In this document: positions 2,386 to 56,017 of the stretch, piece after piece
How the letters are laid out: each line of letters starts with the position of its first letter
How positions within the stretch are numbered: position 1 is the stretch's first letter
Origin: Verrucomicrobiota bacterium
Lineage (GTDB): Bacteria > Verrucomicrobiota > Verrucomicrobiia > Limisphaerales > JANNEF01
Assembly: GCA_031378375.1 (NCBI GenBank)
Contig: JANNEF010000105.1
Span: 693 to 64,692 of the forward strand
Direction of reading: 5' to 3'
DNA length: 64,000 nt
Notes under the pieces: generated by a model
The model's database searches: none
What the model saw: the letters and a program-made list of their open reading frames with translations, nothing else
What the model was told of the DNA's origin: nothing
Translations under genes and position numbers: made by a program

Positions 2386-3612
2386 CTATCTCTTTCTCTG
2401 CACCTTCGCCGCGACTTTCAGGCGGAGCGCGTTGAGCCGGATGAAGCCGGTGGCGTCGTCCTGGTTGTAGGCCTTGGTCGGGTCGGCCTCCATCGTGGCG
2501 ATGTGCGGGTTGTAGAGGCTCACGGGAGATTTGCGGCCCGCGACCATGATGTTGCCCTTGTAGAGCTTCACGCGCACCGTGCCGGTCACGTTCTTCTGGC
2601 TCTCGGTCACGTAGGCCTGGAGCGCGAGGCGTTCGGGCGCAAACCAGAAGCCGTTGTAAACGAGTTCGGCGTACTTCGGGATCAACGCGTCGCGCTGATG
2701 CATGACCTCGCGGTCCATCGTCAGCGTCTCCATCTGCCGATGCGCGAAATGCAGGATGGCGCCGCCGGGCGTCTCATACACGCCGCGCGATTTCATGCCC
2801 ACGTAACGGTTCTCCACCATGTCCACGCGCCCGACGCCGTGTTTGCCGCCGAGCTTGTTCAGCGCCTTCATCACGCCGAGTGGTGAAAGCTTCTTGCCAT
2901 TCACGGCCACGCAATTCCCCTTCTTGAAATCGAGCGTGACGAACTCCGGCTTGTCCGGCGCGTCTTCAGGGAACACGGAGAGCGTGTTGAAATAACCGCG
3001 ATACTTCGCCTCGCCCGCATCGAACCACGGGTCTTCGAGAATGCCCGCCTCGTAGGAGATGTGCAGGAGGTTGCGGTCCATCGAGAACGGTTTTTTCGCG
3101 CTGGCTTGCACGGGAATCTTGTGGCGGTCGCAGTAATCAATCATCGCCTGCCGGCCGGGAAATTCGGTGCGATACCGCTCGTCGCGCCACGGGGCGATGA
3201 CCTCCAAATCCGGCGCGAGCGCGGCGGCGGTGAGTTCGAAACGCACCTGGTCGTTGCCCTTGCCCGTCGCGCCGTGGGCGATGGCATCTGCCTTCTCCTT
3301 CTTCGCGATCTCCACCATGCGCTTGGCGATAAGCGGCCGCGCGATGCTCGTGCCGAGAAAGTATTGGCCCTCGTAAATCGCGCCCGCGTGAATCATCGGA
3401 TAGATGAAGTCGGTGGCGAATTCCTCCTGGAGGTCATCGATGTAAATCTTCGACGCGCCGGTGTTCCGGGCCTTCTTTTCGAGGCCGTGGAGTTCCTCCT
3501 CCTGTCCGATGTCGGCGCAGAAGCCGATCATCTCCGCGTTGTATTTATCCTTGATCCATGACATGAGGACCGAGGTGTCGAGACCGCCGGAGTAGGCTAA
3601 AACAATTTTCAT
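2386..3612 (-). CDS. argG: Argininosuccinate synthase
   Basis: Track ORF 2386..3876 trimmed to the ATG at 3612 ([15 protein letters not shown], the SGGLDTS ATP-pyrophosphatase loop). Also has [13 protein letters not shown] and [18 protein letters not shown]. The upstream 88 codons are Arg/Pro-rich and look non-coding. Confidence 0.93.
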
Positions 3613-6948: not shown

Positions 6949-8795
6949 ACGGGTTTCTCTCCTTTGGGTTGGCGGGCGGGCAGGCTGACGGTGAACGTTG
7001 CGCCTTCGCCCAGTTTGCTCGCCGCGGTGATGGTGCCACCGTGGCGATCGGTAATACGCCGGCAAACCGCCAGCCCGACGCCCGTGCCTTCGAATTCGGT
7101 GCGCCCGTGCAGCCGTTGGAACATGGTGAAAATTTTATCGAGATATTTTTCCTCAAAACCGATGCCGTTGTCCCGGATCGTCAGTTCGCAGATCTCATCG
7201 TCAGGCGAAGGATTGACCTTGGCGGCGAATGGACGCTTGACGATCTCCGCGCTGATGGTGACCAGCGGCTGCGCGCCCGGCGCTTGGAACTTCAGCGCGT
7301 TGCCGATCAAATTTTGCAGCAGTTGGCGCATTTGGAGCGGGTCCGCGTCAATGGTGGGCAAGGCACCGACCTCGACTTTCGCCTTCGTGCGTTCAATGCG
7401 CACTTCCAGATCAGTCAGCACTTCCTGCGTGACCGCAGCGAGATCCACCGGCGCGAACGGCTCGGAGGTGCTGATGACACGCGAGAAGGTGAGCAGATCG
7501 TTGATGAGGGTCTGCATTCGCGCGGCGGCGCTCTGCATGCGCTCCAGATAATCGCGCCCTTCGTCCAGCTTTACCGCGTCGCACTTGGTTTTGAGGCGGT
7601 CGCCGAAGGCCTGGATTTTGCGAAGCGGCTCCTGCAAATCATGAGACGCCACGTAGGCAAACTGCTCCAACTCGGCGTTGGACCGTGCCAGCTCGGCGGC
7701 CTTGCGACCCAAAGCTTCCTCGGTGCGTTTGCGTTCGGTGATGTCCTTGAAAATAACCACGGCACCGACCATCCGCTCTTTTTCCATGATCGGCGTGCGG
7801 ACGTACTCGACGGGGAAACTGGCGCCGTCCTTGCGGTGGAAGATGACATCCGGCTGAGCTGCGTCGTCGCGCATCCGAAACTGCGTTTCCCCGTTTTGCA
7901 CCGGCGCGGAATGCGAGCGGTGGAACACCTCGATCTCCGGCTTGCCAATGAGCTCTTCGACGGACCAGCCGGTCAGTTTCGCGGCGGCAGGGTTGACGAA
8001 CGTGGTCTTGCCCTGGAGGTCCAGGCCGTAGATGCCCTCACCGGCGGAACTGAGGATGTTTTCGTAGCGGCGCTGGAGTTTCTGCAATTCCTGGGTGCGC
8101 ACCTGCACGGCCATCTCGAGCACATCTTTCGAACGCTCCAGTTCCTGGCGCTGGTGGGCGAGGGTTTTTCCCACTTGGGTGCGCTCGCTGAGTTCCTTCT
8201 CCAGCGCGGCGAGGGACTTGGTCAGCGAGCCGGTGCGTTCCTCAATGCGCTTGTCAAAGTCCTGTTGCAGCGTGCGCAACTGTCCTTCCACCTGCGCGCG
8301 CAAGGCGGTCTGGTGCCGTGCTTCGATTTGGGCCTCGTCCAGTTCGGACTGCGCGACCTGCAATTGCCGGGCATATTGCTGCGACTCCTGCTCCAACGTC
8401 GCACCGCGCATGGCGATGCGGCTGACCCATGCCTGCCGCCACAGCGCCATGCCCAGACTCATCACCAACATCAAACCCGCGCCACCCGCCGCCGTCGCCA
8501 CGGTGACCTTCAAAGTCCAGTCGTCCACCTGTTTGAGGAGACGCGGGATCGCTTGTTCCGCCTGTGACTTGATCTGAAGGGGTGGGGGATTTGTGGAAGC
8601 GCCGGTGGTCGAGCGTGCCGACTGGGCACCTTCGGCATAGAGGGCAATCCCTTGTTCCTTGGCCTGCGCCCGCAACGATTTGGTACCGGCCACATAAACC
8701 CAAATGCTGGCACCGATGGCCAGACTCAGCACAAGCGCCGAGGCGACCACGAACGGTTTGGGCATCGGTGATTTCGTTTCAGTTTGGCTGCTCAT
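6945..8795 (-). CDS. Membrane sensor histidine kinase (TM - coiled coil - PAS - HisKA - HATPase)
   Basis: 616 aa. It has N-terminal TM segments, a long coiled-coil region, a PAS domain (GEGIYGLDLQGKTTFVNPAAAKLTGW), an H-box (ASHDLQEPLRKI) and ATPase boxes (IGNALKF, DNGIGF, GTGVGLAVC). Confidence 0.9.
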   Translation of the reverse strand: MSSQTETKSPMPKPFVVASALVLSLAIGASIWVYVAGTKSLRAQAKEQGIALYAEGAQSARSTTGASTNPPPLQIKSQAEQAIPRLLKQVDDWTLKVTVATAAGGAGLMLVMSLGMALWRQAWVSRIAMRGATLEQESQQYARQLQVAQSELDEAQIEARHQTALRAQVEGQLRTLQQDFDKRIEERTGSLTKSLAALEKELSERTQVGKTLAHQRQELERSKDVLEMAVQVRTQELQKLQRRYENILSSAGEGIYGLDLQGKTTFVNPAAAKLTGWSVEELIGKPEIEVFHRSHSAPVQNGETQFRMRDDAAQPDVIFHRKDGASFPVEYVRTPIMEKERMVGAVVIFKDITERKRTEEALGRKAAELARSNAELEQFAYVASHDLQEPLRKIQAFGDRLKTKCDAVKLDEGRDYLERMQSAAARMQTLINDLLTFSRVISTSEPFAPVDLAAVTQEVLTDLEVRIERTKAKVEVGALPTIDADPLQMRQLLQNLIGNALKFQAPGAQPLVTISAEIVKRPFAAKVNPSPDDEICELTIRDNGIGFEEKYLDKIFTMFQRLHGRTEFEGTGVGLAVCRRITDRHGGTITAASKLGEGATFTVSLPARQPKGEKPV

Positions 8796-9142
8796 GATCT
8801 ATCGGGACCCATATTCCACGCTTTGTTTCGTACCGATGATTTACGGTCCACGTCTAAGGTATCGGCTGCTTTCACCGGATGTTTAATTTTTCCTGCGCGA
8901 AACTCACGGCGTGACCCGTTACCAATTCATCAACCGGTTTGCCCTTCTCAGCACAAGACATGCCCTCACCCGCGTAACATCAAAAAACCTTTTTCGCTTT
9001 CGTTCCATCTCCATCGGTCGGTTCCAATCCCGTTTACAAATGAACCGGTTTGGCCTTCAATCGCGCCATGTTCGCCGGAACCAACGTTTCCCTCACCGCG
9101 ACCGCCGGAACGTCGCACGTGACTTTTGACTAGCGGTGGCGC

Positions 9143-9971: not shown

Positions 9972-10952
9972 TCACGCCCCGGCGCGCGGATCCAGGGCGT
10001 CGCGCAGTCCGTCGCCCAGAAAATTCAACGCAAGCAACGTGGTCACCAACATCGTGGCGGGACATACGATCAGCCACCAATACATCCGGATCGGGTTTAG
10101 TTGCGCCGCCCCCTCGGCGATCAGAGATCCCCAACTGGCCATCGGCGGCTGGATGCCCAGGCCGAGGTAGCTCAGGAAAGATTCGTAGAGAATCACTGAA
10201 GGCACCGTGAGTGTGAGGTAAACAATCACCACGCCCCACACGTTCGGCAAAATGTGATGCCACAGGATGCGTGCGTGGCTCGCTCCCAGCGCGCGGCTCG
10301 CTTCCACGAACGCCCGATGCCGCAGCGACAACACCTGGCCGCGCACAATGCGCGCCATGGTCAGCCACGACACCGCGCCCAGCCCGGCGAACAGAAACAG
10401 CAGCCGGGCCGACGAGGCGAAATTCGTACCCGCCACCCTCGTCAGCCAGCTCTTTAACAACCCTTCCAACGTGGCGATCAACACAATCACAAACACGACG
10501 GATGGCAGCGCGTAAAGGATGTCCACGCACCGCATCAACAGTGCGTCCCAGCGTCCACCGACGTAGCCCGCCACCGCGCCCCAAGTGACGCCAATGAGCA
10601 AACTCACGCCCGCGCCGACCGCCCCGACCAGCAGCGAAATGCGCGCGCCGTAGGCCATCCGCGTGAGCACGTCGCGCCCGTGGATGTCCGTGCCGCACCA
10701 GTGGCGCCCGTCGGGTGGTTGAAATTGCGCGTTGGACATACTGCTCTCGCTAAAGGGCGAGAGCCATGGCCACAGCACGATGAACCCGGCCAGCAACAAC
10801 AAAAATCCAAGACTTACCAGTGCCGGGCGGTTGCGTTGGAAACGTCGCCAGGCACGCACGGAGGGACGCGGTGAGTGGCGAGCGGCGAGAGCCACAGCAC
10901 TCGCCATCGTTTCTCCGCCGCCCGCTTCCTCCGCTTCGCGGTCCTCAACCAT
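9972..10952 (-). CDS. Peptide/nickel-type ABC transporter permease (OppC/DppC-like)
   Basis: 326 aa, polytopic, with the EAA-type loop (FVEASRALGASHARILWHHILPN). The start overlaps the upstream permease stop by 8 nt. Confidence 0.85.
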   Translation of the reverse strand: MVEDREAEEAGGGETMASAVALAARHSPRPSVRAWRRFQRNRPALVSLGFLLLLAGFIVLWPWLSPFSESSMSNAQFQPPDGRHWCGTDIHGRDVLTRMAYGARISLLVGAVGAGVSLLIGVTWGAVAGYVGGRWDALLMRCVDILYALPSVVFVIVLIATLEGLLKSWLTRVAGTNFASSARLLFLFAGLGAVSWLTMARIVRGQVLSLRHRAFVEASRALGASHARILWHHILPNVWGVVIVYLTLTVPSVILYESFLSYLGLGIQPPMASWGSLIAEGAAQLNPIRMYWWLIVCPATMLVTTLLALNFLGDGLRDALDPRAGA

Positions 10953-11859
10953 GTTTCACCCTCCGGTCGAGCACGCTGTAGCTCAGATCCACCAGCAGGT
11001 TCAGCACGAGCAACAGCACCGCGTAAAGCAAGACGAGGCCGACGATCATCGGGTAATCCCGATTCTGCGTGCTGTTCACCAAAAACACGCCGATACCGGG
11101 AATGCGAAAAATGTTTTCGATGACGAATGATCCGGTCAGCAAATCCGCCAGCAATGGCCCCGCGTAGGACACCACCGGCAGCACGGCCAGCCGAAACGCA
11201 TGCTTGATCAGGATGGCCGGTTCGCTCAAGCCCTTCGCACGCGCGGTGGTGATGAAACCTTCGTGCAACGTGCTCAACATTCCCTCGCGCATGAGTCGCG
11301 CGACTCGACCGGAAAAGTAAAGTCCCAGTGCCAGCGTCGGCAGCACCGCGTGCAGCGGCGACTCCCACAACGCCACCGGCAGCCAGCCCAAGTGGATCGC
11401 GAAAACCATCACCAGCAAGGGCCCAACAACGAATCCGGGCACACACACCGCGAGGATGGCAAGGAAACTTCCCACCCAGTCCCCCCACTCGCCTTTGCGC
11501 ACCGCCGTGTAGAAACCAAGCGGGATGCCCACGCCCTGCGCGAAGCCGAACGCCAGCAAGCCCAGTATGAGTGACACCGGCAGACCCTGCGCAATGATGT
11601 CGTTGACGGTGTGGCTGCGGTATTTGAGCGACGGCCCAAAATCACCGCGCGCCAGGCCGCCGAGGTAACGCAAGTATTGTTGCCAGAGCGGCTCGTCGAG
11701 ATGGTATTTCGCCTTGAGATTGCGCTCAATGTCGGGCGTGGACGGCTCGCGCTCCTTGTCGAACGGCCCACCCGGCGCCACGCGCACCAGCGCAAACGCC
11801 AGCGCGCTGATGAGCAGCAGCAGCGGGAGGAGGAAGATGGCGCGCTTGAGGAAATACAT
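10945..11859 (-). CDS. Peptide/nickel-type ABC transporter permease (OppB/DppB-like)
   Basis: 304 aa. It has the typical N-terminus MYFLKRAIFLLPLLLLISALAFALVRVAPGGPF and the loop FITTARAKGLSEPAILIKHAFR. Confidence 0.88.
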   Translation of the reverse strand: MYFLKRAIFLLPLLLLISALAFALVRVAPGGPFDKEREPSTPDIERNLKAKYHLDEPLWQQYLRYLGGLARGDFGPSLKYRSHTVNDIIAQGLPVSLILGLLAFGFAQGVGIPLGFYTAVRKGEWGDWVGSFLAILAVCVPGFVVGPLLVMVFAIHLGWLPVALWESPLHAVLPTLALGLYFSGRVARLMREGMLSTLHEGFITTARAKGLSEPAILIKHAFRLAVLPVVSYAGPLLADLLTGSFVIENIFRIPGIGVFLVNSTQNRDYPMIVGLVLLYAVLLLVLNLLVDLSYSVLDRRVKHG

Positions 11860-11862
11860 GCC

Positions 11863-11966
11863 GATTAATCAGTGAGTCAGTAATCAGTAAACCAGTGGTG
11901 TGGCAGCCCGGGGCAGTTACTCCGTCCGCCGGATACTGACTCACCGATTACTGGATACTGGTTCAC
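11863..11966. repeat. CAGT-word palindromic element (copy in the opp operon)
   Basis: The left arm is GATTAATCAGTGAGTCAGTAATCAGTAAACCAGTGGTG. The right arm is GGATACTGACTCACCGATTACTGGATACTGGTTCAC, built of reverse-complement words. A ~30-nt spacer separates them. Confidence 0.8.
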
Positions 11967-13629
11967 TTCCGCGCTTCTTCCGTATCGCATACACCGGATG
12001 TTCATCAATCAGGTTGGGATGAATGCCCTCGATACGCGCGGAATCGTAAAAATGAATTCCGGCGTAAAAGTAGAGCGGGACGATGGGCAGTTCGTCGCGC
12101 ACGAGCAGCGTCTCGGCTTCCCGTAAAAACTTCTCGCGTAGTCTCGGGTCGGTCTGGCGATTACCCTCGCGCACCAATTCGTCGTAGCGCGTGCTCTTCC
12201 AGCCGGTGCGGTTGTTGCCGTTGTTGCTCATGAACATGTCGAGAAACGTGTTTGGATCGTTGTAGTCCCCGACCCAACTGCTGCGGCCCACGTCGTAGTC
12301 CAGCGCGCGCAACGCGACCAGATACACTTTCCACTCCGCCTGGCGCAATTCCATACGGATGCCCAGTTCCCGTTGCCACATCGCCTGGATTTCCACGCTG
12401 ATCTGCTCGTCGGTCTTGCCGGTGTTGAACAGGTACTGGAACACCGGAAACCCCTTGCCGCCGGGAAAGCCGGCCTGCGCCAGAAGCTTCCGCGCCTGAT
12501 CCGGATCGTAGTCCAGACCTGCGGGCGGATCGTAAACCGGCATTCCCCTGGGCGTGAAATGCGCCGCCACCCGCTCGCCGCCGCGCGTGATTTTTTCGAC
12601 GATGCGCCGCTTGTCCACCGCCAGCGCCAGCGCCCGGCGCACCCGCACGTCGTCGAAGGGCTTCCGCGTCACGTTGTAGCGGTAGAACAGCGTGCCGAGA
12701 TAATCAAACGTGTGGCAGTCCGGGCGGCGCCGCAACGCGTCCATCAACTGGCCGGGGACCAGCGACTTGTCCCAGATGATGTCCGCCCGGCCGGTGAGAT
12801 AGAGATTGATGGCCGTCATCGGCGAGTCCATCGAGAGAAAATCCACCACGGAACTGTGGACGTTCGCCGCGTCCCAGTAGCGCGGATTGCGGCGCACGCG
12901 GATGCGGTCCTGCAGCCGCCACTCGACCAGTTCGTACGCGCCGCTCACTGGCATCGGTGGCATCACGACCCAGCGATCGCCGTGCTTTTCGATGGCGAAC
13001 TTCGGCGCAACGGCAAGCGTCGGAAACGCGCACAGGTCCAGGAAGAACGGCGTGGGGCCAGTCAGTTCCGCCCGCACCGTGTGAGCGTCGAGCGCACGCA
13101 CGCCAACTTGTGCCGGATCTTTGATTCGGCCGCTGTTGAACTCCTCACCGTTCTTCAGGAAAAACAATTGTCCGGCGTAATCGGCGGCAGTGTTCGGGTC
13201 GAGCACTCGAATCCAGGAATAGACCACGTCCTCCGCCGTGATCGGCTGGCCGGTGGACCAGGCGGCATTGGTGCGCAGATGAAAAGTGTAGGTCGTGCCG
13301 TCCGGCGAAATCTCCCACCGGTGAGCCAGGCCCGGTTCGGGAGCCGCGTTGGTGGGATTGATGCGCGTCAATCCCTCGAAGAGCGCCCGCACTACGCGCC
13401 CGTCCGCCTGGCCAGTGATGATCGCCGGGTCGAGCGATTCCGGCTCCGCGCCGTTGATGATGACGAGGTCGGCGCGAGACGGAACGGCCGGGCGGGCGGA
13501 AAGGAGCGGCAGCAACAGGAGCGGCAGCAACAGGAGCAGCAGCAACGGCAGCGGGCGCACCGCGCACGACGCCCCCAAAAAACGAAACGCCCTCTTGAAA
13601 CTCAAGAGGGCGTCCGTGGAAAACTTCAT
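11941..13629 (-). CDS. ABC transporter substrate-binding protein, family 5 (OppA/DppA-like)
   Basis: 562 aa. A Leu-run signal peptide is followed by typical family-5 segments (INGAEPESLDP, WSTGQPITAEDVVYSW, RRALALAVDK). The last 8 codons and the stop lie inside repeat element 11863-11966. Confidence 0.85.
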   Translation of the reverse strand: MKFSTDALLSFKRAFRFLGASCAVRPLPLLLLLLLPLLLLPLLSARPAVPSRADLVIINGAEPESLDPAIITGQADGRVVRALFEGLTRINPTNAAPEPGLAHRWEISPDGTTYTFHLRTNAAWSTGQPITAEDVVYSWIRVLDPNTAADYAGQLFFLKNGEEFNSGRIKDPAQVGVRALDAHTVRAELTGPTPFFLDLCAFPTLAVAPKFAIEKHGDRWVVMPPMPVSGAYELVEWRLQDRIRVRRNPRYWDAANVHSSVVDFLSMDSPMTAINLYLTGRADIIWDKSLVPGQLMDALRRRPDCHTFDYLGTLFYRYNVTRKPFDDVRVRRALALAVDKRRIVEKITRGGERVAAHFTPRGMPVYDPPAGLDYDPDQARKLLAQAGFPGGKGFPVFQYLFNTGKTDEQISVEIQAMWQRELGIRMELRQAEWKVYLVALRALDYDVGRSSWVGDYNDPNTFLDMFMSNNGNNRTGWKSTRYDELVREGNRQTDPRLREKFLREAETLLVRDELPIVPLYFYAGIHFYDSARIEGIHPNLIDEHPVYAIRKKRGSEPVSSNR

Positions 13630-14082: not shown

Positions 14083-14847
14083 TCAAATGGAGTTCTTCAC
14101 GATATCCGCGAAACTCCGGTCTTCCAGCGAGGCACCGCCCACCAGCGCGCCATCCACATCGGGCTGGCTCATCAATTCCCGCGCGTTCGCCGGTTTGACG
14201 CTGCCACCATATTGAATCCGCACGCGCCGCGCAACCGTCTCGTCAAACAACTTCACCAGCAACCCGCGAATGTAGGCGTGCGCCTCCTGCGCCTGCGCCG
14301 TCGTCGCTGTCCGGCCGGTGCCGATGGCCCAGACCGGCTCATAGGCGATGATGGTTTCTTCCATCTGCGCCTTGCTCAAGCCGGCCAGGCTGCCGCGCAC
14401 CTGCGTGCCCAGAACTGTTTCCATCTGCCCCGCCTCGCGCTCCGCCAGCGTTTCGCCGACGCAGACGATGGGCTTGAGCGATGCGCCGTGGGCCGCGAAA
14501 GCCTTCTTGGAAATCAACTCATCGCTCTCCCGCTGGTACTGCCGCCGCTCGGAATGGCCGAGGATGACGTAACGCACGGAAAATTCCTTCAACATGCCGG
14601 CGGCGATTTCGCCAGTGTAGGCGCCGGAATTGTGCTCGCTCATGTTCTGCGCCCCGAGGCGGATGTTCGAGTCAAGGATCGCCTTGGAAACCTCGCCCAG
14701 GGCGGTGAATGGCGGGCAGACGACGATGTCCACTTCCTTCACATCCTTGCACTCACGTTTGATGGCGGCGACCAAAGCCAGCGCCTCGGCCACGGTCTTG
14801 TTCATCTTCCAGTTGCCGGCGATGATCAGTTTGCGTTCTTTGTCCAC
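14083..14847 (-). CDS. tpiA: Triosephosphate isomerase
   Basis: Track ORF 14083..15147 trimmed to the GTG at 14847 (MDKERKLIIAGNWKMN). Also has ILGHSERR, IVCVGE, IAYEPVWAIGTG and YGGSV. The upstream 100 codons overlap pgk and are Arg-rich. Confidence 0.92.
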   Translation of the reverse strand: MDKERKLIIAGNWKMNKTVAEALALVAAIKRECKDVKEVDIVVCPPFTALGEVSKAILDSNIRLGAQNMSEHNSGAYTGEIAAGMLKEFSVRYVILGHSERRQYQRESDELISKKAFAAHGASLKPIVCVGETLAEREAGQMETVLGTQVRGSLAGLSKAQMEETIIAYEPVWAIGTGRTATTAQAQEAHAYIRGLLVKLFDETVARRVRIQYGGSVKPANARELMSQPDVDGALVGGASLEDRSFADIVKNSI

Positions 14848-14894
14848 GGGGTCGGTAAGGGTTGTTGATTTCTGGTTTCGGGTGGACGCGGGCG

Positions 14895-25660: not shown

Positions 25661-26656
25661 ATGACCTTCGCGCATCCCTATTTTTTGTTGCTGTTGTTGC
25701 TGCTTCCGGTGATCGCGTGGCTGCGGGGCAAGCACGGCCCGCGGGCGGCGTTTCTTTATTCATCCGTGCAGTTGGTGCAGGATGTCTCCCACGTCAGCCG
25801 TTCGAGCGCGGGCCGGGTTTTGACGGCCCTGCGCTGGCTGACGCTGGCGTTGTTCATCGTGGGGCTGGCGCGGCCGCAACTGGTCGAGAGCGAGACCACC
25901 GTCAACGCCAGCGGCATTGACATCGTGCTGGCGGTTGATCTTTCCGGCAGCATGGAATCGGAAGACTTCACGCTCAAAAACCAACGCGTGAACCGCCTCG
26001 TGATCGCCAAGGATGTGTTGAAGAAATTCATCGAACGCCGCCCGGGCGATCGCATCGGGCTGGTGGCATTTGCCGGCAAGGCGTACATCGCCGCCCCGAT
26101 GACGCTCGACCACGGCTTCCTGCAACAAAACCTGGAGCGCCTCGCCCTGCACTCCATTGAGGACGGCACCGCCATTGGTTCCGGCCTGTCGGCTTCAATC
26201 AACCGGCTGCGCGATCTGAAATCCAAGAGCAAGATCGTCATCCTGATGACCGACGGACAGAACAACGCGGGCAAAGTCCCGCCGCTCACCGCCGCCGAGG
26301 CTGCGCAGACTCTGGGCGTGAAGGCTTACACCATCGGCGTCGGCACGCGCGGCACCGCGCCCATGCCGCGCATGAATGTCTTCGGCCAGAAAGTCTATGT
26401 GCAGGTGCCGGTGGACATTGACGAGGAGACGCTCCAGGCCATCGCGAAAAAAACCGGCGGCAAGTATTATCGCGCCGACAGCACGGACACCTTGCGCAAG
26501 ATTTACGACGAGATCGATCAACTGGAAAAGACCGAGGTCGAAGTGAAGAAGTATGTGCGCATCGAAGAACTGTTTTTCTGGGCGGTGGCGCCGGGGCTGG
26601 GGCTGCTGCTGCTGGAGATTTTGTTGAACAACACAATTTGGCGGAGGCTGCCGTGA
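25661..26656 (+). CDS. batA: VWA-domain membrane protein BatA
   Basis: Track ORF trimmed to the ATG at 25661 (MTFAHPYFLLLLLLLPVIAW). It has a VWA MIDAS motif (DIVLAVDLSGSM, ILMTDGQNN) and a C-terminal TM segment. Confidence 0.88.
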   Translation: MTFAHPYFLLLLLLLPVIAWLRGKHGPRAAFLYSSVQLVQDVSHVSRSSAGRVLTALRWLTLALFIVGLARPQLVESETTVNASGIDIVLAVDLSGSMESEDFTLKNQRVNRLVIAKDVLKKFIERRPGDRIGLVAFAGKAYIAAPMTLDHGFLQQNLERLALHSIEDGTAIGSGLSASINRLRDLKSKSKIVILMTDGQNNAGKVPPLTAAEAAQTLGVKAYTIGVGTRGTAPMPRMNVFGQKVYVQVPVDIDEETLQAIAKKTGGKYYRADSTDTLRKIYDEIDQLEKTEVEVKKYVRIEELFFWAVAPGLGLLLLEILLNNTIWRRLP

Positions 26657-46992: not shown

Positions 46993-48240
46993 ATGAATCA
47001 CGAACCATCGTTTTGGAAGGCCGGACACTTGCCCACGTTGATCGGCGCGTTCCTTTGCTTCTGCGTTTGTTCGATGTGCTGGCTGCTGCTCGGCGGGCTG
47101 GGCAATCACATCGGGGCGGACCTCGGCTTGACGCCGTTGCAAAAGGGATTGCTCGCCGCCGTTCCGTTGCTGGGCGGCGCGCTGTTGCGGCTGCCGTTCG
47201 GCTGGCTCACCGACGCCATCGGCGCGAAGCGGACCGGATTGCTCGTGCTCGCGGCGACCGCCGTGCCGGTGCTGATGGGCTGGCTGTGGGCGCAGTCGTT
47301 CGCGAGCCTGCTGGTCGTGGGCTTTCTCCTCGGCGTCGCGGGCGCGAGTTTCGTCGTTGCGCTGCCGATGGCCAGCCGCTGGTATCCACCGCAATTTCAG
47401 GGACTGGCCATGGGCCTGGCGGGACTCGGACTGACGGGCACATTGTTCGCGACATTTCTTGGACCGCGGCTGGCGGAACGGTTTGGCTGGCAGAATGTCT
47501 TCGGCCTCGCGCTGATTCCCCTGGCGGTCGTCGCAGTTTTGTTCCTGGTGTTTACCAAGGACGCGCCCTGCGTTGTGCGCCGCCAAAGCCTCGCGGACTT
47601 CGCGGGCATGTTGCGCGAGCGCGACATGATTTTGTTCAGCCTGTTCTACGGTGTGACGTTTGGCGGGTTCGTCGGCTTCGCGAGCTTTCTTTCCATCCTC
47701 CTGGGCGACCAATACGGCCTCACCAAAGTCCGCGCCGGCGAACTCGCCGCGCTTGGCGTGATGGCCGGCAGCCTGGTGCGTCCGCTCGGCGGATTGCTCG
47801 CGGACAAGTTCGGCGGCATCCGCATGCTCAACGTGCTGTTCGGCGTGGTCGCGCTGCTCGCGATGGGTGTGGCGCAATTACCCGCCCTGCCCATCACGGT
47901 CGGGCTGTTCGTGGTCGCGATGGCCTGCCTCGGCCTCGGCAATGGCTCGGTCTTTCAGCTCATGCCGCATCGTTACGGCACGCGCGTCGGTGTGGCCACG
48001 GGCATTCTCGGCGCGGCGGGGAGCTTCGGCGGATTTTTTCTGCCGACGCTGCTTGGCTGGCTCAAGCAAACCACCGGCACTTACAGCGGCGGCATGGCGG
48101 TGCTGGCGGCGCTGGCCGTCGTTGCGCTCATCGTGCTGGCGGTGGTGCAGACGGAATGGGTCGGCGTCTGGATCGGCAAACACGGCCGCGTCGAATCGCG
48201 GCCGGCGACCCCGCCAATCAGGGAAGCCAACATCGCCTGA
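46993..48240 (+). CDS. narK: MFS nitrate/nitrite transporter (NarK/NasA-type)
   Basis: 415 aa with 12 predicted TM segments. GADLGLTPLQKGLLAAVPLLGGALLRLPFGWLTD and GAAGSFGGFFLP resemble the NNP-family signatures. Confidence 0.85.
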   Translation: MNHEPSFWKAGHLPTLIGAFLCFCVCSMCWLLLGGLGNHIGADLGLTPLQKGLLAAVPLLGGALLRLPFGWLTDAIGAKRTGLLVLAATAVPVLMGWLWAQSFASLLVVGFLLGVAGASFVVALPMASRWYPPQFQGLAMGLAGLGLTGTLFATFLGPRLAERFGWQNVFGLALIPLAVVAVLFLVFTKDAPCVVRRQSLADFAGMLRERDMILFSLFYGVTFGGFVGFASFLSILLGDQYGLTKVRAGELAALGVMAGSLVRPLGGLLADKFGGIRMLNVLFGVVALLAMGVAQLPALPITVGLFVVAMACLGLGNGSVFQLMPHRYGTRVGVATGILGAAGSFGGFFLPTLLGWLKQTTGTYSGGMAVLAALAVVALIVLAVVQTEWVGVWIGKHGRVESRPATPPIREANIA

Positions 48241-48247
48241 TTCGCCG

Positions 48248-49960
48248 ATGCCCAGCCCGCCTTCAACCAGACAACCCTTGCGCGAATCCGACACGAACGA
48301 CGGGCGCACGCTGATTGACGACTTGCTCGCCGAGCAGCGTCAACTCACCGCCGTCGAACAATTCTCCCGCGCGCACGACGCCCACGAAGTCCACGGCCGC
48401 CGCTACCGCGATCTGCTTCCCGCCAATGCGCCCGCGCCCGGACAGCAATACGCCTTCGAGGTGGACCTCGACCAGTGCAGCGGCTGCAAGGCGTGCGTGA
48501 CCGCGTGCCATTCGCTCAACGGCCTCGACGACGACGAGACCTGGCGCAGCGTCGGCGCGTTGCACTCCGCCAATGTGCGCCAGCCGCTCAAACAGATCGT
48601 CACCACGGCCTGTCATCATTGCGTGGATCCCGGTTGCCTCACCGGCTGTCCCGTGCTCGCCTACGACAAAGACCCCGTCACGGGCATCGTTCGCCACCTG
48701 GATGACCAGTGCATCGGCTGCCAGTATTGCGTGATGAAATGTCCCTACGAGGTGCCGCAGTACTCGAAGACTCGCGGCATCGTGCGCAAGTGCGACATGT
48801 GCAGCTCGCGCCTCGCCGTCGGTGAAGCCCCCGCGTGCGTGCAAGCCTGCCCGAACGAGGCGATCCGCATCACGGTGGTGGATCAGGCGAAGGTGCGCGG
48901 GAAGTATCGCAGGCTAAAATCCGAAGGCCGAAATCCGAAATCCGAATCAAATCCGAAGGCCGATAACCAAAACTCGCCATTCGGATTTCGGAATTCTTTC
49001 GGGCTTCGGGCTTCAGATTTCGGATTTCACAACTCCTTCCTCCCCGACTCGCCGAATCCCGCCATCACGCTTCCGACGACCCGTTACGTTTCCAAGCGCG
49101 CCCTGCCCGGCGACCTCGAAGCCGCTGACGCCCATGAACTCCGCCGCGCGAAGCCGCATCCGCCGCTCACCCTCATGCTGGTGCTCACCCAACTCGGCGC
49201 GGGGCTGGCGCTGATGGACGCGCTCACGGGCGGCGCGGCGCGGATGCTGGCAGCCGTCGCCCTCGCGGCCAGCGCCCTCGGCGTCGTCGCGGGCACGCTG
49301 CACCTGGGCCAGCCGCTCAAGGCGTGGCGCAGTTTTCTCGGCTGGCGCAAATCATGGCTGAGTCGCGAGTTGATTGCCTTCGGCGCTTTCGTCGGCGTGC
49401 TCGGCTCGCATCTGGCCATTGGCCGTCCGCTCTCCGCCGGTCTCGCCGCGCTCACCGGACTCCTCGCGGTCGCGTGCTCGGCGATGGTTTACGCGGACAC
49501 GCGCCGGCCGTTCTGGAACGCGCCGATGACATTTGGAAAATTCCTCGGCACCACGCTGTTGCTCGGCGGGGCGGGGTCCCTGTTGCTGTCGGCGCTTGCC
49601 ACGAATCCACTCCTGCCGCGCCCTCTGGTGGTCGCCGTGATCGTGCTCGGCACCATCTTCAAGCTGGCCGTGGAGAATCGCATCTTCCGCTTTCTCGTGG
49701 ACGAACAAGACCCGCACCTCACCGCTCTCAACAAGACCGCCCTGCTGCTCAACGGCCTGTTCGGCCGGCTCTCGCGCGGTCGCGTGGCTTGCGCCCTCGC
49801 GGGTGGAGTGGTGCTTCCGGCGTTGATGCTTGTCACCGGCGCGGGCGTCGCCTTGCCCGCGTTGGCGCTGACGTTGTGCGTCGCGGGTGAACTCATCGAG
49901 CGCCATCTCTTTTTCGTCGCCGAGGTCGCGCCCAAAATGCCGGGAGGCCGGGGAGTATGA
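48248..49960 (+). CDS. Fusion of a 4x[4Fe-4S] ferredoxin (DmsB/NrfC-like) and a DmsC-like polytopic membrane anchor
   Basis: Track ORF trimmed to the ATG at 48248. It has four Cys clusters ([41 protein letters not shown]...CVQACP). About 8 hydrophobic helices follow, from residue ~300. The stop overlaps the nasA start (ATGA). Confidence 0.8.
48915..49030. repeat. AATCCGA-word palindromic element (in-frame copy inside the FeS/DmsC gene)
   Basis: The left arm is TAAAATCCGAAGGCCGAAATCCGAAATCCGAATCAAATCCGAAGGCCGA, followed by a 15-nt spacer. The right arm is ATTCGGATTTCGGAATTCTTTCGGGCTTCGGGCTTCAGATTTCGGATTTCAC. It is translated as [39 protein letters not shown]. Confidence 0.85.
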
Positions 49961-52362
49961 AGACCACGGGAGCCACAACCAGGCGCGCGGCTGTGGTCGC
50001 AGACCCAGCCGCAGCGCCCACGCAACGACAACGAGCTGCGGCTGATCCTACGGACCCAGCCGCGCTCCAATCGAACTCCCTTCTCCGTCAATGGAGCGGC
50101 CCGCTGTCCTCCGACCTCACGTTGCATCCCGGCGACTTTGGTCTCGGCAGAATCCCCGCCCGCCTTCGCCCCGACGCCACCACACGCTCCATCTGCGGCT
50201 TCTGCTCCACGGGCTGTTCGCTTGACGTTCACCTGCAATCCGGCGTGGCCGTGAACCTCACGCCCACGGTGGACTATCCGGTGAATCTGGGCATGGCGTG
50301 CCCGAAAGGCTGGGAGGCGCTCACCTGTCTGGCCGCGCCGGATCGCGCCACACAACCGCTTTTGCGCAATCCCGACACCGGCAAACTCGAACCCACCGAC
50401 TGGGACGAAGCGATGCAGGTCTTCACGCTGAAGTTCAAGGCGCTGATGGATCAGCACGGGCCGGAGAGTGTGGCGTTTCTCAGCACCGGCCAGATTTGCA
50501 CGGAGGAGATGGCGCTCCTCGGCGCGCTTTGGAAGTTCGGCATGGGCGCGTTGCACGGCGACTCGAACACGCGCCAGTGCATGGCCACCAGCCACGTTGC
50601 CTACAAGCAGAGCTTCGGCTTCGACGCGCCGCCCTACACCTACGCGGACTTCGAGGAGTCGGACACGCTCGTCTTCATCGGCTCGAATCTCTGCATCGCG
50701 CACCCGATTCTCTGGCAGCGCGTCCTGCGGAACAAAAAAAATCCCGCCCTCATCGTCATTGACCCGCGCAAGACGGAGACGGCGATGAACGCGACCCAGC
50801 ACGTCGCGCTGCGGCCCAAGTCCGACCTCACGCTGCTCTACGGCCTGGCGAACCTGCTGGTGCAGGGCGGCTGGATTGACCGCGCGTTCATCGAGCGCAG
50901 CACGACGGGATTCGCGGAGTTCGCGGAGTTCGTGCGGCAGTTCACACCCGACAAAGTTGCGGCGGAGACCGGCTTGACCGTGGGCGAATTGTCCCGCGTC
51001 GCCGAGACCATCGCGAAGGGCAAGGCCGTGAGTTTCTGGTGGACGATGGGCGTGAACCAGAGCCACGAGAGCACGCGCACCGCGCAGGCCGTCATCAATC
51101 TCGCGCTGATGACCGGCAACATCGGCCGTCCCGGCACCGGCGCGAACAGCATCACCGGCCAGTGCAACGCGATGGGCTCGCGCCTGTTCGCCAACGCCTC
51201 GGGACTGCTTGGCGGGCGCGACTTCCTCAACGCTGAACATCGCGCCGAGGTATCGCGCGCGTTGCACATCGCGCCGGAAAGCATTCCCGCGAAGAACTCG
51301 CTCGCCTACGACCAAATCATGCAGGGCATCGCCGAGGGCCGGATCAAGGGCCTATGGGTCATCGCCACGAACACGGCGCACTCGTGGATTGATTCCGCCC
51401 GCGCCTGTGGCGCACTCGACAAGCTGGAATTTCTCGTCGTGCAGGACATGTTCACGACCACCGACACGGCGAAACGCGCGCATCTGATTTTGCCCGCCGC
51501 CGGCTGGGGCGAGAAGGAGGGCACGTTCATAAACAGCGAGCGGCGCTTCGGTCACATCAAGAAAGTGTCACGCGCGCCCGGCCAGGCGTTGAGCGATTTT
51601 AACATCTTCCGCCTGGTAGCCGAATACTGGGGCTGCGCCGGGATGTTCAGCCAGTGGACTTCGCCGCAGGCCGTTTTCCAAATCCTGAAAAGACTTTCCG
51701 CCGGTCGCCCGTGCGACATCACGGGCATCGAAGACTACCGGCATCTGGATGCGAGCGGCGGGATTCAGTGGCCGCTGGCAAAAGAACGTGAGTCAGTAAT
51801 CAGTGAGCCAGTGACCAGTGAACGCGAGATGGCGACGGGTTCCGCTACTGATTCACTGAATACTGGCGCACTGATTACTGATCACTCTCCCCGCGAACGC
51901 CGCCTCTTCGCCGACGGCAAGTTCTTCACTCCCGATGGCCGCGCAAAATTCCTCTTTGACCCGCCACGTCCCGTCGCCGAGCCGGTGGACAGCGAGTATC
52001 CGTTCGTGCTGTTGACCGGACGCGGCACGAGCGCGCAATGGCACACAAACACGCGCACCGGCAAGTCCGCCGTCTTGCGCACGCTGTATCCGGCCAACCC
52101 CTACGTGGAGATCCATCCGAAAGACGCCGCGCGATTGCGAATCGAACCAAACACGACCGTCGCCGTCATCTCACGACGCGGGCGCGTTGAGTGCGCCGCG
52201 GTGGTCACACCCATCGTGCAGCCCGGACAGGTCTTCATCCCGATGCATTACGACCTGACGAACCAATTGACCCGCGCCGAGTTCGATCCGCACTCGCGCC
52301 AGCCCAGCTACAAACATTGCGCAGTGCGAATTGAACCGACGCGCAACGGTTCCAACAAATGA
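49957..52362 (+). CDS. nasA: Molybdopterin (bis-MGD) oxidoreductase, assimilatory nitrate reductase type (NasA/NarB-like)
   Basis: 801 aa with an N-terminal FeS motif ([10 protein letters not shown]...CPKG) and MGD-binding segments ([14 protein letters not shown]). The C-terminal barrel has [20 protein letters not shown] and the tail [10 protein letters not shown]. Confidence 0.85.
51788..51887. repeat. CAGT-word palindromic element (in-frame copy inside nasA)
   Basis: The left arm is GTGAGTCAGTAATCAGTGAGCCAGTGACCAGTGAAC, followed by a 23-nt spacer. The right arm is TACTGATTCACTGAATACTGGCGCACTGATTACTGATCACTC. It is translated as [33 protein letters not shown]. Confidence 0.85.
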
Positions 52363-54233
52363 GCGCCACGGAGTCCAACATCGTTGAGTTGCCCAAGTCG
52401 CCCGGACGCGAATTCACGCCCGAGCAAAAGGAATATCTCGCCGGCTTCATGGCAGGCATCGCGCAGCGCGGAATGATCCCCTTCGTCGGCGCGATGCCGG
52501 ATGGCCGCCTCACCGCTGACCCGGCGCACGGCGGCGACAATCTCGCCGCGCCGCGCGAGGAGACGGTGTTCGGCACGCCGCTCTCGGAGTTATGCAAACA
52601 GGAGCGATGGAAGTACGAGGAAAACCCGCTGGACGTTTGGGACAAGCTGCTCGCCTGCGCCGAGCAGGACAAACTACCCGACGAGGCGGACACTTTTCGC
52701 TTTCGGGCGCACGGCCTGTTCAACGTCGCCCCGGCGCAGAACGCCTTCATGCTGCGCTGCCGCATCCCCGCCGGCGAGTTGACGGCGGCGCAACTCAAGG
52801 GCCTCGCCGACATCGCGGAGGAATGGGGCGGCGGCTGGGCGGACATCACCACGCGGTCGAATATCCAGATTCGACAAATTGCGCCGCGCCACATCATCAA
52901 GGTGCTGACGCGGCTGCAGGAACTCGGACTCACCGCGCGCGGTTCCGGCGTGGACAACATTCGAAATGTCACCGCGTCGCCCACGGCGGGCTTCGACGCG
53001 GCGGAGTTGATTGACACGCGCCCGCTGGCGCACGCGCTGCACCACTACATCCTCAATCACCGCGACCTCTACGGGCTGCCGCGCAAGTTCAACGTCGCCT
53101 TCGACGGCGGCGGCGCGGTGAGCGCGGTGGCGGACACGAATGACATCGGGTTCGTGGCGGTACGAGTGGCGCAGGCTTCCAGCCTGAGTCCGGCGGGCTT
53201 GCCGCCCGCGAATCTGGGGCAGGGTGCCCCAAGCGGCAGGCTGGAAGCCTGCCCCACTATCGAGCCCGGCACCTACTTCCGCGTCGAACTCGCCGGCATC
53301 ACCGGGCACCGGCAGTTCGCGAAGGACGCGGGCATTCTCGTGAAGCCGGGCGAATGCCTGGCCGTCGCCGCCGCGATGATTCGCGTGTTCTGTGAGCACG
53401 GCGACCGTACCGACCGCAAGAAGGCGCGGCTGAAATACCTGATTGATAAGTGGGGCATCCCGAAGTTCCTCGAAGCGACGCAAGCGAAACTCGCCTTTGC
53501 GCTCCGTCATTTTCCGTTGGAGCAGTGCGAGCCGCGCCATCCGGCGGTGAAGCACGGGCACATCGGCGTGTTCAAGCAGGCGCAGCGCAACTTGAACTAC
53601 GTCGGCGTCGTCATCCCCGTGGGCCGGATGCAGGCGCGGCAAATGCGCCGGCTCGCCGACCTCGCGGCAAATTACGGCTCTGGCCACCTGCGCCTGACGC
53701 CGTGGCAGAATCTGCTATTGCCGAACATCCCCGACGGTTTCGTCGAGACGGTGAAGCGCAATCTCCTCCGCATCGGTTTCCACTATGAAGCCAGCACCAT
53801 CGCCGGCGGCCTCGTCGCCTGCACCGGCAACACCGGTTGTAAGTGGGCCGCGACGAACACCAAGGGCCAGGCGGTGGAGCTGGCGCGCTATCTGGAAAAG
53901 CGCGTGCAACTCGACCAGCCGATCAACATCCATCTCACCGGCTGCCCGAACTCCTGCGCGCAGCACTACATGGGCGACATCGGCCTGCAAGGGGCGCGCG
54001 TCACGTTGAGCGGCGAGTCGGTGGAGGCGTATCACGTCGTGCTTGGTGGCGGTTACGGCGCGGAGCAGGCGGTAGCAAAGGAAGTGTTCAAAGGCATCCC
54101 GTTCTCCGCGCTGCCGGAGCTGCTGGAGCGGGTGCTCATTGTTTACCAGGAGAAGCGGGCGGCGGGCGAGAGCTTCGCCGCGTTCACGCGCCGGCATGAA
54201 GTGAAACAACTGCAAGAGATGTTTTCTGAGTGA
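52359..54233 (+). CDS. nirA: Sirohaem/[4Fe-4S] nitrite (or sulfite) reductase hemoprotein, NirA-type
   Basis: 624 aa. It has duplicated NIR_SIR halves and the cluster/sirohaem Cys motif ([11 protein letters not shown]...[17 protein letters not shown]). The start overlaps the nasA stop (ATGA). Confidence 0.85.
53171..53252. repeat. Inverted-repeat element inside nirA (in frame)
   Basis: Perfect 16-bp inverted repeat GCAGGCTTCCAGCCTG (53171-86) / CAGGCTGGAAGCCTGC (53237-52). It encloses two small hairpins (GCGGG-CTTGCCG-CCCGC and GGGGCA-GGG-TGCCCC). It is translated as [28 protein letters not shown]. Confidence 0.8.
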
Positions 54234-56017
54234 TGGAAACCAACTTGATTCCCTACCTGCCCGACACGGCGCCGTTCACGCCGGAGCAACGAGCCTATTT
54301 GAACGGGCTGTTCGCCGGCCTGTTCGCCCACGCGCCGCGCGCCACCAACCCGGCGCCTGCCGCCAAGCCACTGCTACCGCTGACCATTCTGTTTGGCTCG
54401 CAGACCGGCAATGCGGAGGCGCTCGCCAAGCGCGTCGCCAAGGAAGCCGGCAAGCAGGGCTTCGCGCCGACGATCTTTGACGCGGCGCAATATCCGCGCG
54501 AGCAACTCAAGACCGAGAAGCATCTGCTGCTCATCACCAGCACCTACGGTGACGGCGAACCGCCGGACAACGCAAAGGACCTGTGGGAATTTCTCACCGC
54601 CACCACCGCACCCGCGCTGCCGGAGTTGAAGTTCTCCGTGCTGGCCCTGGGCGACACGAACTACGAAAAGTTCTGCGAGTGCGGGAAAAACTTCGACCGC
54701 CGCTTCCATGAGCTGGGCGCACACCGGGCGCATCCGCGCGTGGATTGCGACGTGGACTTTGAGGAGCCATTCGGGAACTGGCTGGCCGGCGCGTTGGGCG
54801 CGCTGGCAGGCGGTGGGGGAGTAATCAGTGAATCAGTAATCAGTAGGTCAGTGACCAGTGCGCCCGTCTCTGCCACTGATTCACTGGTTACTGGTTACTC
54901 GCGCGCCCACCCGTTCCCCGCCCCGCTCGTCGCCAACCGCCGGCTCAACGCTCCCGGCTCGGGCAAGGACACGCGGCATTTTGAAATCGCACTCGACGGC
55001 AGCGGCTTGACCTATGAAGTCGGCGACGCGCTGGGGGTGGTGCCGGCGAATTGCCCGGAACTCGCGGACGAGATGCTTCGCACGCTCGGCTGCACCGGCG
55101 GGGAAGCGGTGCCCGGCGCGAAGGGTGGCGAAGTCCCGCTGCGCGAGGCGCTGTTGCGGCATTACGACATCACGAAGATTGCCCAGCCGCTCTTGCAGGC
55201 AATGGCAGAGCGGAGCGGGGACGAGTTGCTCAAGCAACTCACCGCGCCCGGTGTGAACGGCGAGTTGACGAAATTTCTCTGGGGCCGCGAGATTGTTGAC
55301 CTGTTGCTGGCGCACCCGCGCGCGAAGTTCGCACCGATGGAATTTGTCGGCCTGCTCAAGAAACTTCAGCCGCGGCTCTACTCCATTTCCTCCAGCCCCA
55401 AGGCACATCCCGGCCAGGTGCATCTCACTGTCGGGGTCGTGCGCTACGAATCGCTGGGCCGGGCGCGCAAAGGCGTGTGCTCCACGTTCCTGGCGGAGCG
55501 CGCGGGCGGCGGCGCGGCGGCGCCGGTCTTCGTCCACACGAACAAAGGCTTTCGCCCGCCCGCCGATGGCAGCCGTCCGATGATCATGGTCGGGCCGGGC
55601 ACGGGCATCGCGCCGTTCCGCGCTTTTCTGGAAGAGCGTCGCGCCGTCGGCGCGACGGGAAAGAACTGGCTGTTCTTCGGCGACCAACGGTCGGAGATGG
55701 ATTTCCTCTACCGCGAAGAGCTGGAGGCGATGCATCGCGACGGCACGCTGGCGCGGCTGGACACGGCTTTCTCCCGCGATCAGGAAGAAAAGATTTACGT
55801 GCAACAGCGAATGCTCGAACACGCCACCGAACTGTTCACCTGGCTGGAGGCCGGCGCGCATTTCTACGTCTGCGGCGACGCCAACCGCATGGCGAAGGAC
55901 GTGGACCGGGCGCTGCACCAGATCATCGAGCAAGCCGGCGGACGCACGGCAGAGCCGGCGGCGGAGTACGTGAAGAAGATGCAGGCGGAGAAGCGGTATC
56001 AGCGGGATGTGTATTGA
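54230..56017 (+). CDS. Diflavin reductase, sulfite reductase flavoprotein CysJ-like (flavodoxin + FAD/NADPH domains)
   Basis: 595 aa with an FMN domain ([32 protein letters not shown]) and an FAD/NADPH domain ([42 protein letters not shown]). Start is GTG 54230 or ATG 54233; both overlap the nirA stop. Confidence 0.88.
54821..54900. repeat. CAGT-word palindromic element (in-frame copy inside the cysJ-like gene)
   Basis: The left arm is GTAATCAGTGAATCAGTAATCAGTAGGTCAGTGACCAGTG, followed by a 13-nt spacer. The right arm is CACTGATTCACTGGTTACTGGTTACTC. It is translated as [27 protein letters not shown]. Confidence 0.85.

Follow-up and report, generated by a model that had tools for sequence, protein, structure and literature searches.

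In the 64-kb window analyzed here (the whole 64,000-nt stretch of Verrucomicrobiota DNA, to which all positions refer unless another locus is named), the gap between the genes of an OppA-like periplasmic peptide-binding protein (oppA) and an OppB-like permease (oppB) is filled by a palindromic element, copy A, the arms of which consist of tandem CAGT-containing units. We consider copy A (11863-11967) to be a miniature, lacking an open reading frame (ORF), of a family of palindromic hairpins whose full-length form carries a PF05635 gene and resembles the intervening sequences (IVSs) of 23S rRNA, and we assign this reading a probability of about 0.65. Copy A is a member of a dispersed family, it interrupted a formerly compact oppA-oppB junction, and the same arms enclose PF05635 genes elsewhere. 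To judge from these sequences, the window copy would descend from a PF05635-carrying element, and the family looks widespread, barely described and related to the rRNA IVSs.

On the plus strand, copy A (11863/11866-11967, ~105 nt, delimited by sequence, inverted repeats and RNA folding and assigned to neither strand) reads GATTAATCAGTGAGTCAGTAATCAGTAAACCAGTG / GTGTGGCAGCCCGGGGCAGTTACTCCGTCCGCC / GGATACTGACTCACCGATTACTGGATACTGGTTCACT, with the termini GATTAATCAGTG... and ...ACTGGTTCACT. Its right arm (11931-11967, 37 nt), which shows ACTG units on the plus strand and forms the 5' side of the hairpin on the mRNA, reads on the minus strand AGTGAAC CAGTATC CAGTAAT CGGTGAGT CAGTATCC and can be aligned with the arms of three further copies in the window, B-D (see below). 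The left arm (11863-11897), the 3' side on the mRNA, contains four CAGT units on the plus strand (TCAGTGAG TCAGTAA TCAGTAAAC CAGTG); on the minus-strand mRNA it reads ..CACUGGUUUACUGAUUACUGACUCACUGAUUAAUC, and its final ACUGA lies 12 nt ahead of the oppB AUG. Between the arms, a G+C-rich centre of 33 nt (11898-11930, likewise assigned to neither strand) forms the top of the hairpin and is unrelated in sequence to the centres of copies B-D. Each arm comprises ~35 nt and four or five units of 7 or 8 nt; a repeat finder reported inverted repeats between the arms in four overlapping registers (I1-I4) and 15-nt direct repeats within the arms (D1/D2). As RNA, the coding strand folds with -41.1 kcal/mol (z -4.1), and none of 200 shuffled sequences folded as well. 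A 28-nt arm probe matched a second site in the window, with 0 matches expected from 100 dinucleotide-preserving shuffles. An earlier sequence-only reading of the window had described a repeat that fills the oppA-oppB gap: its coordinates agree with ours within 1-3 nt, the repeat finder, the fold and the probe all show the element to be real, and the 81-nt gap is indeed spanned, with an overlap into the 3' end of oppA. The OppB-like ORF (10945..11859, minus strand; BPD_transp_1 in orthologous loci) begins 3-4 nt past the left arm, its ATG lying at 11859-11857. We rejected an intrinsic terminator at copy A, as no T-run stands behind the stem and none was called there; strict sequestration of the oppB start region is also unsupported, the last 11 nt before the AUG being unpaired in the minimum-energy fold. 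An Rfam scan of 11700-12100 at a permissive E-value returned no relevant family and one chance match to a small nucleolar RNA (E 0.8).

The right arm encodes the end of OppA. The OppA-like ORF (11941..13629, minus strand, 562 aa; SBP_bac_5 PF00496 in homologs) has the C-terminus ...YAIRKKRGSEPVSSNR-stop, in which the 8 codons from S555 to R562 (SEPVSSNR, 11967-11944) all fall within the right arm, as does the TGA stop at 11941-11943 (reverse complement, minus strand). The arithmetic of the arm units explains how a gene can run into them. Since the spacing of the CAGT units switches between 7 and 8 nt, the arm repeats every 15 nt, or five codons; of the three phases relative to the unit, xCA GTx xx and xxC AGT xxx are open and CAG TGA / TAA / TAG is closed, and under strict 7/8 alternation the reader swings between the two open phases. 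This is the case in the copies within the nasA-like gene (..GAG TCA GTA ATC AGT GAG CCA GTG ACC AGT GAA..) and the cysJ-like gene, where the frame is kept open; the 15-nt periodicity allows copies C and D to lie in frame there. On the oppA strand, in contrast to strict alternation, copy A has CAGTATC (7), CAGTAAT (7) and CGGTGAGT, read as ..CCA GTA TCC AGT AAT CGG TGA, so that two consecutive 7-nt units push the frame into the closed phase and OppA terminates at CGG TGA. The earlier reading had also claimed that the repeat provides the last residues and the TGA of OppA and that the nasA copy yields the same SEPV(S/T)S peptide. The first claim follows from the ORF end and the right-arm coordinates, and the second is explained by the phase, since translation of OppA and of NasA runs into the CAGT units in one and the same open phase.

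At the other end of oppA, a terminator-like hairpin on the minus strand (13585-13615, a 14-bp stem followed by a T-run), directly 3' of secG, falls among the opening codons of the mechanically called OppA ORF. The true oppA start is probably downstream of 13585, and transcription of oppA may begin at a promoter of its own or rely on read-through.

To place the element in the history of the junction, we used 120 OppA protein orthologs (P numbers) and 80 metagenomic loci with DNA (L numbers) from a metagenome scan by OppA alignment; in 56 of these loci, the end of oppA and the start of oppB could each be located, and these 56 form the junction sample. The homologs are peptide-binding proteins of Verrucomicrobiota (subdivision 3, Limisphaerales, Pedosphaera), the best of them 76% identical. 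Their conserved C-terminus is ..LLDEHP[VI]xAIRK[KR][KR], and many orthologs terminate at that point, 2-5 residues past ..IRK (P0001, the closest, ends ..AIRKR-stop and P0032 ..IRKKR-stop), while the remaining tails are mutually unrelated and reach up to ~70 residues. The ending SEPVSSNR was absent from the 120 protein orthologs and the ~80 metagenomic loci. A sole partial match, ..IRKTQPGSEP-stop (P0053/L098), owes its tail to a CAGT-type arm that overlaps the 3' end of that oppA; a repeat-free ortholog sharing the tail, which would have contradicted the earlier proposal that the repeat had replaced or extended the native 3' end, was not found. In 24 of the 56 loci, no more than 45 nt separate ..IRK from the oppB start; most of these 24 have 17-22 nt there, and their oppB begins -1 to +5 nt relative to the oppA stop. 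The window has 117 nt, as much as a compact junction and the element together. When copy A was excised in silico, the junction became AAG AAG CGC GGA GGC ATG. As this sequence holds no stop, the native oppA stop has been lost and the ORF is closed by the element: some 8-9 residues were added and the original stop can no longer be identified, in line with the proposed replacement or extension. Copy A therefore interrupted a formerly compact junction, which was probably translationally coupled before the insertion, although its exact sequence is not reconstructable because the best OppA relative is just 76% identical. The extra tail is probably harmless, since the C-terminus of OppA is naturally hypervariable.

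The same hypervariability could be turned against an insertion, in that with natural tails of 0-70 residues a tail of 9 residues is unremarkable by itself, and the tail might be native to OppA with a chance likeness to the repeat, or the palindrome might be an assembly artefact. We hold either possibility to be extremely improbable. The arm that holds the tail codons is 37 nt long, base-pairs with its counterpart and can be aligned with seven further arms of the window, no matches to the arm probe are expected by chance, and, as described above, SEPVSSNR recurs in no ortholog and the lone ..GSEP-stop ending is itself derived from a CAGT arm. An artefact is further contradicted by comparable elements in many independent assemblies and by NasA, which, in-frame copy included, is 100% identical in the window and in a public NCBI assembly (P0121, an NCBI contig). 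OppA itself has no match above 76% identity, and its gene may have been left uncalled in the assembly that holds P0121. In the locus of the closest OppA relative (L001, 3637-3980), the 3' end of oppA is interrupted by an insert of ~300 nt with a 75-aa reverse-strand ORF without a Pfam match, with a direct duplication of 15 nt, GCCATTCGCAAGCGA, on its two sides. Past it, ..AIRKRK-stop can still be made out as the ancestral end, and the insert represents a different kind of insertion at the same spot.

A density scan for CAGT/ACTG found exactly four such palindromes in the 64 kb, copies A-D. Their arms align around ..TCAGTAATCAGTGA[AG][CT]CAGTG.., their centres are unrelated in sequence and length, and all four copies form long hairpins on either strand (z -5.5 to -8.6 for copies B-D). 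Copy B (~26663-26782, assigned to neither strand; -51 to -55 kcal/mol, z -5.6 to -6.8) occupies the batA-batB gap, starting 7 nt past the batA TGA (26654-26656) and ending 8 nt before the batB ATG (26790). Copy C (~51788-51885, plus strand; -53.5 kcal/mol, z -8.6) is in frame in the nasA-like ORF (49957..52362), where the NasA segment after GGIQWP varies from ~10 to ~100 residues among 120 orthologs, with the short form in P0131, P0229 and others. Copy D (54819-54900, plus strand; -39 kcal/mol, z -6.5) is in frame in an ORF for a CysJ-like flavoprotein (54230..56017), and alignment to structures of the E. coli sulfite reductase (SiR) flavoprotein places it in the linker that joins the flavodoxin domain to the FAD domain. 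The window also contains two palindromes with different sequences. A second-family heptad palindrome with AATCCGA / TCGGATT units (48913-49022, -45.7 kcal/mol) is in frame in a Fer4/DmsC-like ORF (47867..49960), and a palindrome of a third kind, GCAGGCTTCCAGCCTG ... CAGGCTGGAAGCCTGC (53149-53258, -72.7 kcal/mol), is in frame in a nitrite/sulfite-reductase-like (nirA-like) ORF (52359..54233). Taken together, the inserts in the Fer4/DmsC, nasA, nirA and cysJ genes mean that four consecutive genes of nitrate assimilation each carry an in-frame palindrome. The Fer4/DmsC-like ORF lies directly upstream of nasA, and its ortholog in L017 has a different long palindrome (8941-9060).

The connection with PF05635 (23S_rRNA_IVP) comes from two directions. 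First, genes of this family occupy the oppA-oppB junction itself in other lineages. Junctions of ~500 nt in L041, L047, L067, L078 and L084 hold a PF05635 ORF of 130-143 aa where the start is intact (that of L078 is truncated), enclosed by (GGTCGAG)n and (CTCGACC)n arms; the L041 ORF matches Pfam PF05635 with E 6e-36, and those of L047, L067, L078 and L084 match a hidden Markov model built from these ORFs. The junction of L002 also has a PF05635 ORF (Pfam E 5e-23), here between ATTTCAA arrays; the same gap (7662-8677) holds a FitA-like antitoxin-type gene, so that ~1 kb of cargo is present at this junction. L044 corresponds to an element of the L041 type whose ORF has lost ~285 nt. Here miniaturisation can be observed at the oppA-oppB site itself; ORF-less derivatives arise by internal deletion.

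Second, the CAGT-type arms of the window themselves enclose PF05635 genes elsewhere. A genome scan with the arm pattern gave 12 CAGT loci, mostly in metagenome-assembled genomes (MAGs) of Verrucomicrobiota. In one of these, a Limisphaerales MAG (L006), the arms stand 400 nt apart around a 166-aa ORF (PF05635 E 8e-31, bAvd E 9e-11) that fills the junction between a PSD1 and a DUF1501 gene. These arms have 21 identical nt in common with copy B, and the ORF translates MRTVTGKSVISEPV.. out of its arm, a peptide that OppA and NasA share with it. The ORF has 7863 homologs at E ≤ 1e-10; among the best 120 of these, 64 start with an arm-encoded M..SVISESVNSE.. and 39 end with ..LTDY-stop, the TGA being drawn from an ACTGA arm. 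At the DNA level, L100, L101 and L103 have complementary CAGT/ACTG arms around the PF05635 gene; these arms run from the stop codon of the PSD1-type gene upstream to a point 6-9 nt short of the DUF1501 ATG. L100 and L101 encode an identical PF05635 protein and differ by 15 nt in the 3' arm (~3025-3075), one 7-nt plus one 8-nt unit, which is copy-number variation of arm units that conserves the 15-nt period. The full-length relatives measure about 450-560 nt. Arms around a PF05635 gene are the classical architecture of 23S rRNA IVSs, sited here in operon junctions and coding loops.

Heptad elements of other sequence stand at the same sites in further lineages. At the NasA site, three other lineages have strong hairpins, with CAGT-type arms in L015 (-56.6 kcal/mol), GGAGTGC/CCGCACT heptads in L016 (-52.4 kcal/mol) and GTTGCAA/CCTGCAA heptads in L017 (-41.5 kcal/mol). 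At the oppA-oppB junction, the arms consist of GACGAAT in L025 (z -3.4), CACAGAG in L036 (-52 kcal/mol, z -7.7), GTCGAGG in L044 (z -6.4), A+T-rich units in L045 (z -3.8), GTCTCAA in L073 (z -6.1) and ATGACGA in L074 (-103 kcal/mol, z -8.4), and the junctions of L043 and L052 contain heptad arrays too. A strict period-7 detector flagged 14 of the 56 junctions, the window junction not being among them; counting heptad arrays or hairpins of other sequence, at least 14-18 of the 56 are occupied. OppA reads into the arm in several of these loci, giving for example the tails GRGSRVEGRE.. and SLRSQVSSLNPWAP. We rejected the idea that the elements are specific for the oppA-oppB junction, as heptad palindromes were also found at the oppB-oppC junction or the OppC N-terminus (L036, L041, L047, L078, L084). 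In L016, a G+C-rich palindrome, GGCGCCGAGCGCCG...CGGCGCTCGGCGC (14746-14866, ~-70 kcal/mol in a 120-nt window of that locus), lies in the CysJ-like linker; with copy D at the corresponding site, this linker may be another recurrently occupied site. CAGT/ACTG heptad arrays and a palindrome were also seen in MAGs labeled Candidatus Promineifilaceae (Chloroflexota) and Candidatus Acidoferrum (Acidobacteriota) (L008 and L011), for which binning errors are possible; the CAGT family or its arm motif may reach beyond Verrucomicrobiota.

Under the favored reading, copy A inserted into the compact oppA-oppB junction, the native stop was lost, and OppA now runs for 8 codons into the arm in an open phase (SEPVSS..) and terminates at the arm TGA. 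In the polycistronic mRNA, the element would form an interrupted stem of ~33 bp that, by analogy with IVSs, would most likely be an RNase III substrate or an exonuclease barrier, and by either route the translation and decay of oppA would become independent of those of oppBC. We take such uncoupling to be a side effect of an insertion that is selfish or tolerated, and not an adaptation of the operon.

The adaptive counterpart of this account would be a hairpin of the kind formed by repetitive extragenic palindromes (REPs), selected to shield oppA from 3'-5' decay and to keep the binding protein in excess over the permease. REP stabilisation, which the earlier reading had raised as a possibility for oppA, is exemplified by malE-malF and hisJ-hisQ. 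The position of copy A fits such a stabiliser well, as a strong hairpin without a terminator T-run stands exactly between the binding-protein and permease genes, and at least 14 of the 56 orthologous junctions have period-7 arrays, with unrelated strong hairpins in several more. A role of REPs in mRNA stabilisation has long been hypothesised (PMC3733652). However, the oppA stop lies inside the 5' arm, so that each terminating ribosome would open up the greater part of the stem; elements of this kind are also found at the five oppB-oppC or OppC N-terminal sites, where the rationale fails, and in frame in the nasA, nirA-like, cysJ-like and Fer4/DmsC-like genes; and ~24 of the 56 lineages retain a compact junction without a hairpin. 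We therefore consider selection as a stabiliser unlikely, and the spread across junctions and coding genes fits a tolerated, promiscuous insertion better than site-specific selection.

A role in translation initiation appears less likely still. Here, the ACUGA heptads before the oppB AUG would be a Shine-Dalgarno-independent site for the ribosome or a regulator, gated by the 5' arm. Copies A and B do end 8-12 nt before start codons that have no obvious Shine-Dalgarno sequence, L006, L010, L014, L100 and L103 show this placement too, and the TAACTGA heptamers of other bacteria, for which translational regulation has been proposed, mostly lie a few nt upstream of starts (PMC4679880). However, half of the copies in the window are inside ORFs and far from starts, any element that fills a short operon spacer ends near a start by geometry, the palindrome is symmetric and its orientation therefore uninformative, and no binding protein is known.

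Several points weigh against the favored reading. No PF05635 gene is present within copies A-D or anywhere in the 64-kb window, so that it is the shared arms, and not a master copy in this genome, from which the descent of the window miniatures is deduced; among the CAGT loci L003-L014, none other than L006 was found to hold such a gene. The inspected close homologs of the CAGT-armed PF05635 gene are all at the conserved PSD1-DUF1501 locus, and the element there looks vertically inherited and not recently mobile. No transposase was found, the window ORFs not having been scanned for Y1 transposases, and no direct repeat flanks any of copies A-D as a target-site duplication. RNase III cleavage and any effect on the levels of oppA or oppB are pure conjecture, and efficient cleavage would harm the in-frame copies in genes that look essential. 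Finally, the arms could in principle have arisen locally by slippage of heptamers, and not by insertion of a pre-formed element.

Beyond the window, we tentatively suggest, at a confidence well below that in the reading of copy A, that IVSs are the tip of a large superfamily of heptad-arm hairpins with an optional PF05635/Avd-like gene, in which the arms are under selection, permissive sites are reoccupied and the PF05635 protein recognises the stem. Such a superfamily would have settled in junctions within operons and in loops of proteins throughout Verrucomicrobiota, and probably in other phyla as well; pairing would be retained while the arm sequence turns over, the 7/8 alternation would leave one frame open, and the reoccupied sites, with lineage-specific versions, would include the oppA-oppB junction, the NasA loop from GGIQWP to ERRLF and the CysJ linker. 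Recognition of the heptad stem by the PF05635 protein would serve spread or RNA processing. For annotation, C-terminal tails, N-terminal extensions and unusual internal stretches of the SVISESV.. / ..TDSLITD type in Verrucomicrobiota proteins are translated arms and not native sequence, and the starts and ends of genes that adjoin such elements should be annotated with arm translation in mind. The stand-alone "four helix bundle" PF05635 genes, which number thousands without an assigned role, appear as cargo of hairpin elements, and ORF-less miniatures are abundant, with four CAGT-type copies and at least two palindromes of other sequence in 64 kb. If confirmed, this would link the work on the IVSs of rRNA with that on heptamer repeats of bacteria and on Rickettsia-type coding palindromes, three topics treated separately so far. 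The element also offers a system for studying how a long hairpin is tolerated in an operon or ORF and whether it tunes the ratio of binding protein to permease.

Among known systems, the closest is the IVS with an S23p/PF05635 gene (Coxiella burnetii, Leptospira; PMC4990558). The IVS in the 23S rRNA of Coxiella burnetii is 428 nt long, contains an S23p ORF and has a 28-bp terminal stem that is cut by RNase III; its 5' part carries tandem heptamers (GACAGAT) in strain-variable number, its ORF is decaying, and strain AuQ01 has a 176-bp deletion in the IVS (PMC4990558). The elements described here share with it the inverted-repeat stem around an optional four-helix-bundle gene, the variable number of tandem heptamers in the terminal region, the decay or deletion of the ORF (compare L044) and, with ~450-560 nt in the full-length relatives, the approximate size. 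In contrast to IVSs, the window copies are located in operon junctions and coding loops instead of 23S rRNA helix 25/45, they are ORF-less (82-120 nt), and their arms alternate between 7 and 8 nt, leaving one frame open.

REP units are imperfect palindromes of 20-40 nt with a GTAG or CGTC tag, linked to REP-associated tyrosine transposases (RAYTs); their ends often donate stop codons to flanking ORFs, and some lie inside ORFs (PMC3733652). Like REPs, bacterial interspersed mosaic elements (BIMEs) and REP doublets forming hairpins (REPINs), the window copies are small, abundant palindromes between co-directional genes that can donate a stop codon and in part lie within ORFs. They are unlike REPs in their length of ~105 nt, the tandem 7/8-nt units, the variable centre and the associated gene, which is PF05635 and not RAYT, and we rejected membership in the GTAG/CGTC REPs on size (~105 versus 20-40 nt) and on the tag, as none is conserved at the termini of copies A-D. 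The Rickettsia palindromic elements (RPEs) are palindromes of similar size (roughly 100-150 nt) found intergenically and in frame inside functional protein genes (as summarised in PMC3733652). Copies C and D likewise are palindromes in frame in genes, which is shared behavior and not membership; the Verrucomicrobiota host, the tandem-heptad arms and the link to PF05635 cargo set our elements apart from the descriptions of RPEs. [quoted passage not shown]

With regard to the heptamers themselves, TAACTGA arrays, known from marine Beggiatoaceae, Cyanobacteria and Bacteroidetes, mostly stop a few nt short of a start codon (MacGregor 2015, PMC4679880). They comprise 2-6 units, nearly all perfect 7-nt direct repeats, with one of 170 sets inverted, and some overlap the end of the upstream ORF (PMC4679880). 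Our elements resemble them in the near-identical unit (..ACTGA) and in the array end just ahead of a start codon (12 and 8 nt in copies A and B), and differ in their convergent hairpin pairs, degenerate 7/8-nt units and in-frame copies inside genes. [quoted passage not shown] No in-frame coding use has been described for these arrays, in contrast to the in-frame copies in the window, and the window arms, with their 7/8 alternation and degenerate units, are not perfect head-to-tail 7-nt repeats. In the literature that we searched, strings of the CAGTAATCAGT type occurred in no relevant context and such elements were not described in Verrucomicrobiota; searches on Verrucomicrobia and coding palindromes returned general papers on REPs, RPEs and mitochondria only, none of which joins these observations. 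A repeat that supplies the end of a gene is a known phenomenon, and what is new here is an ORF-less, IVS-like palindrome whose arms of alternating 7- and 8-nt units keep a reading frame open.

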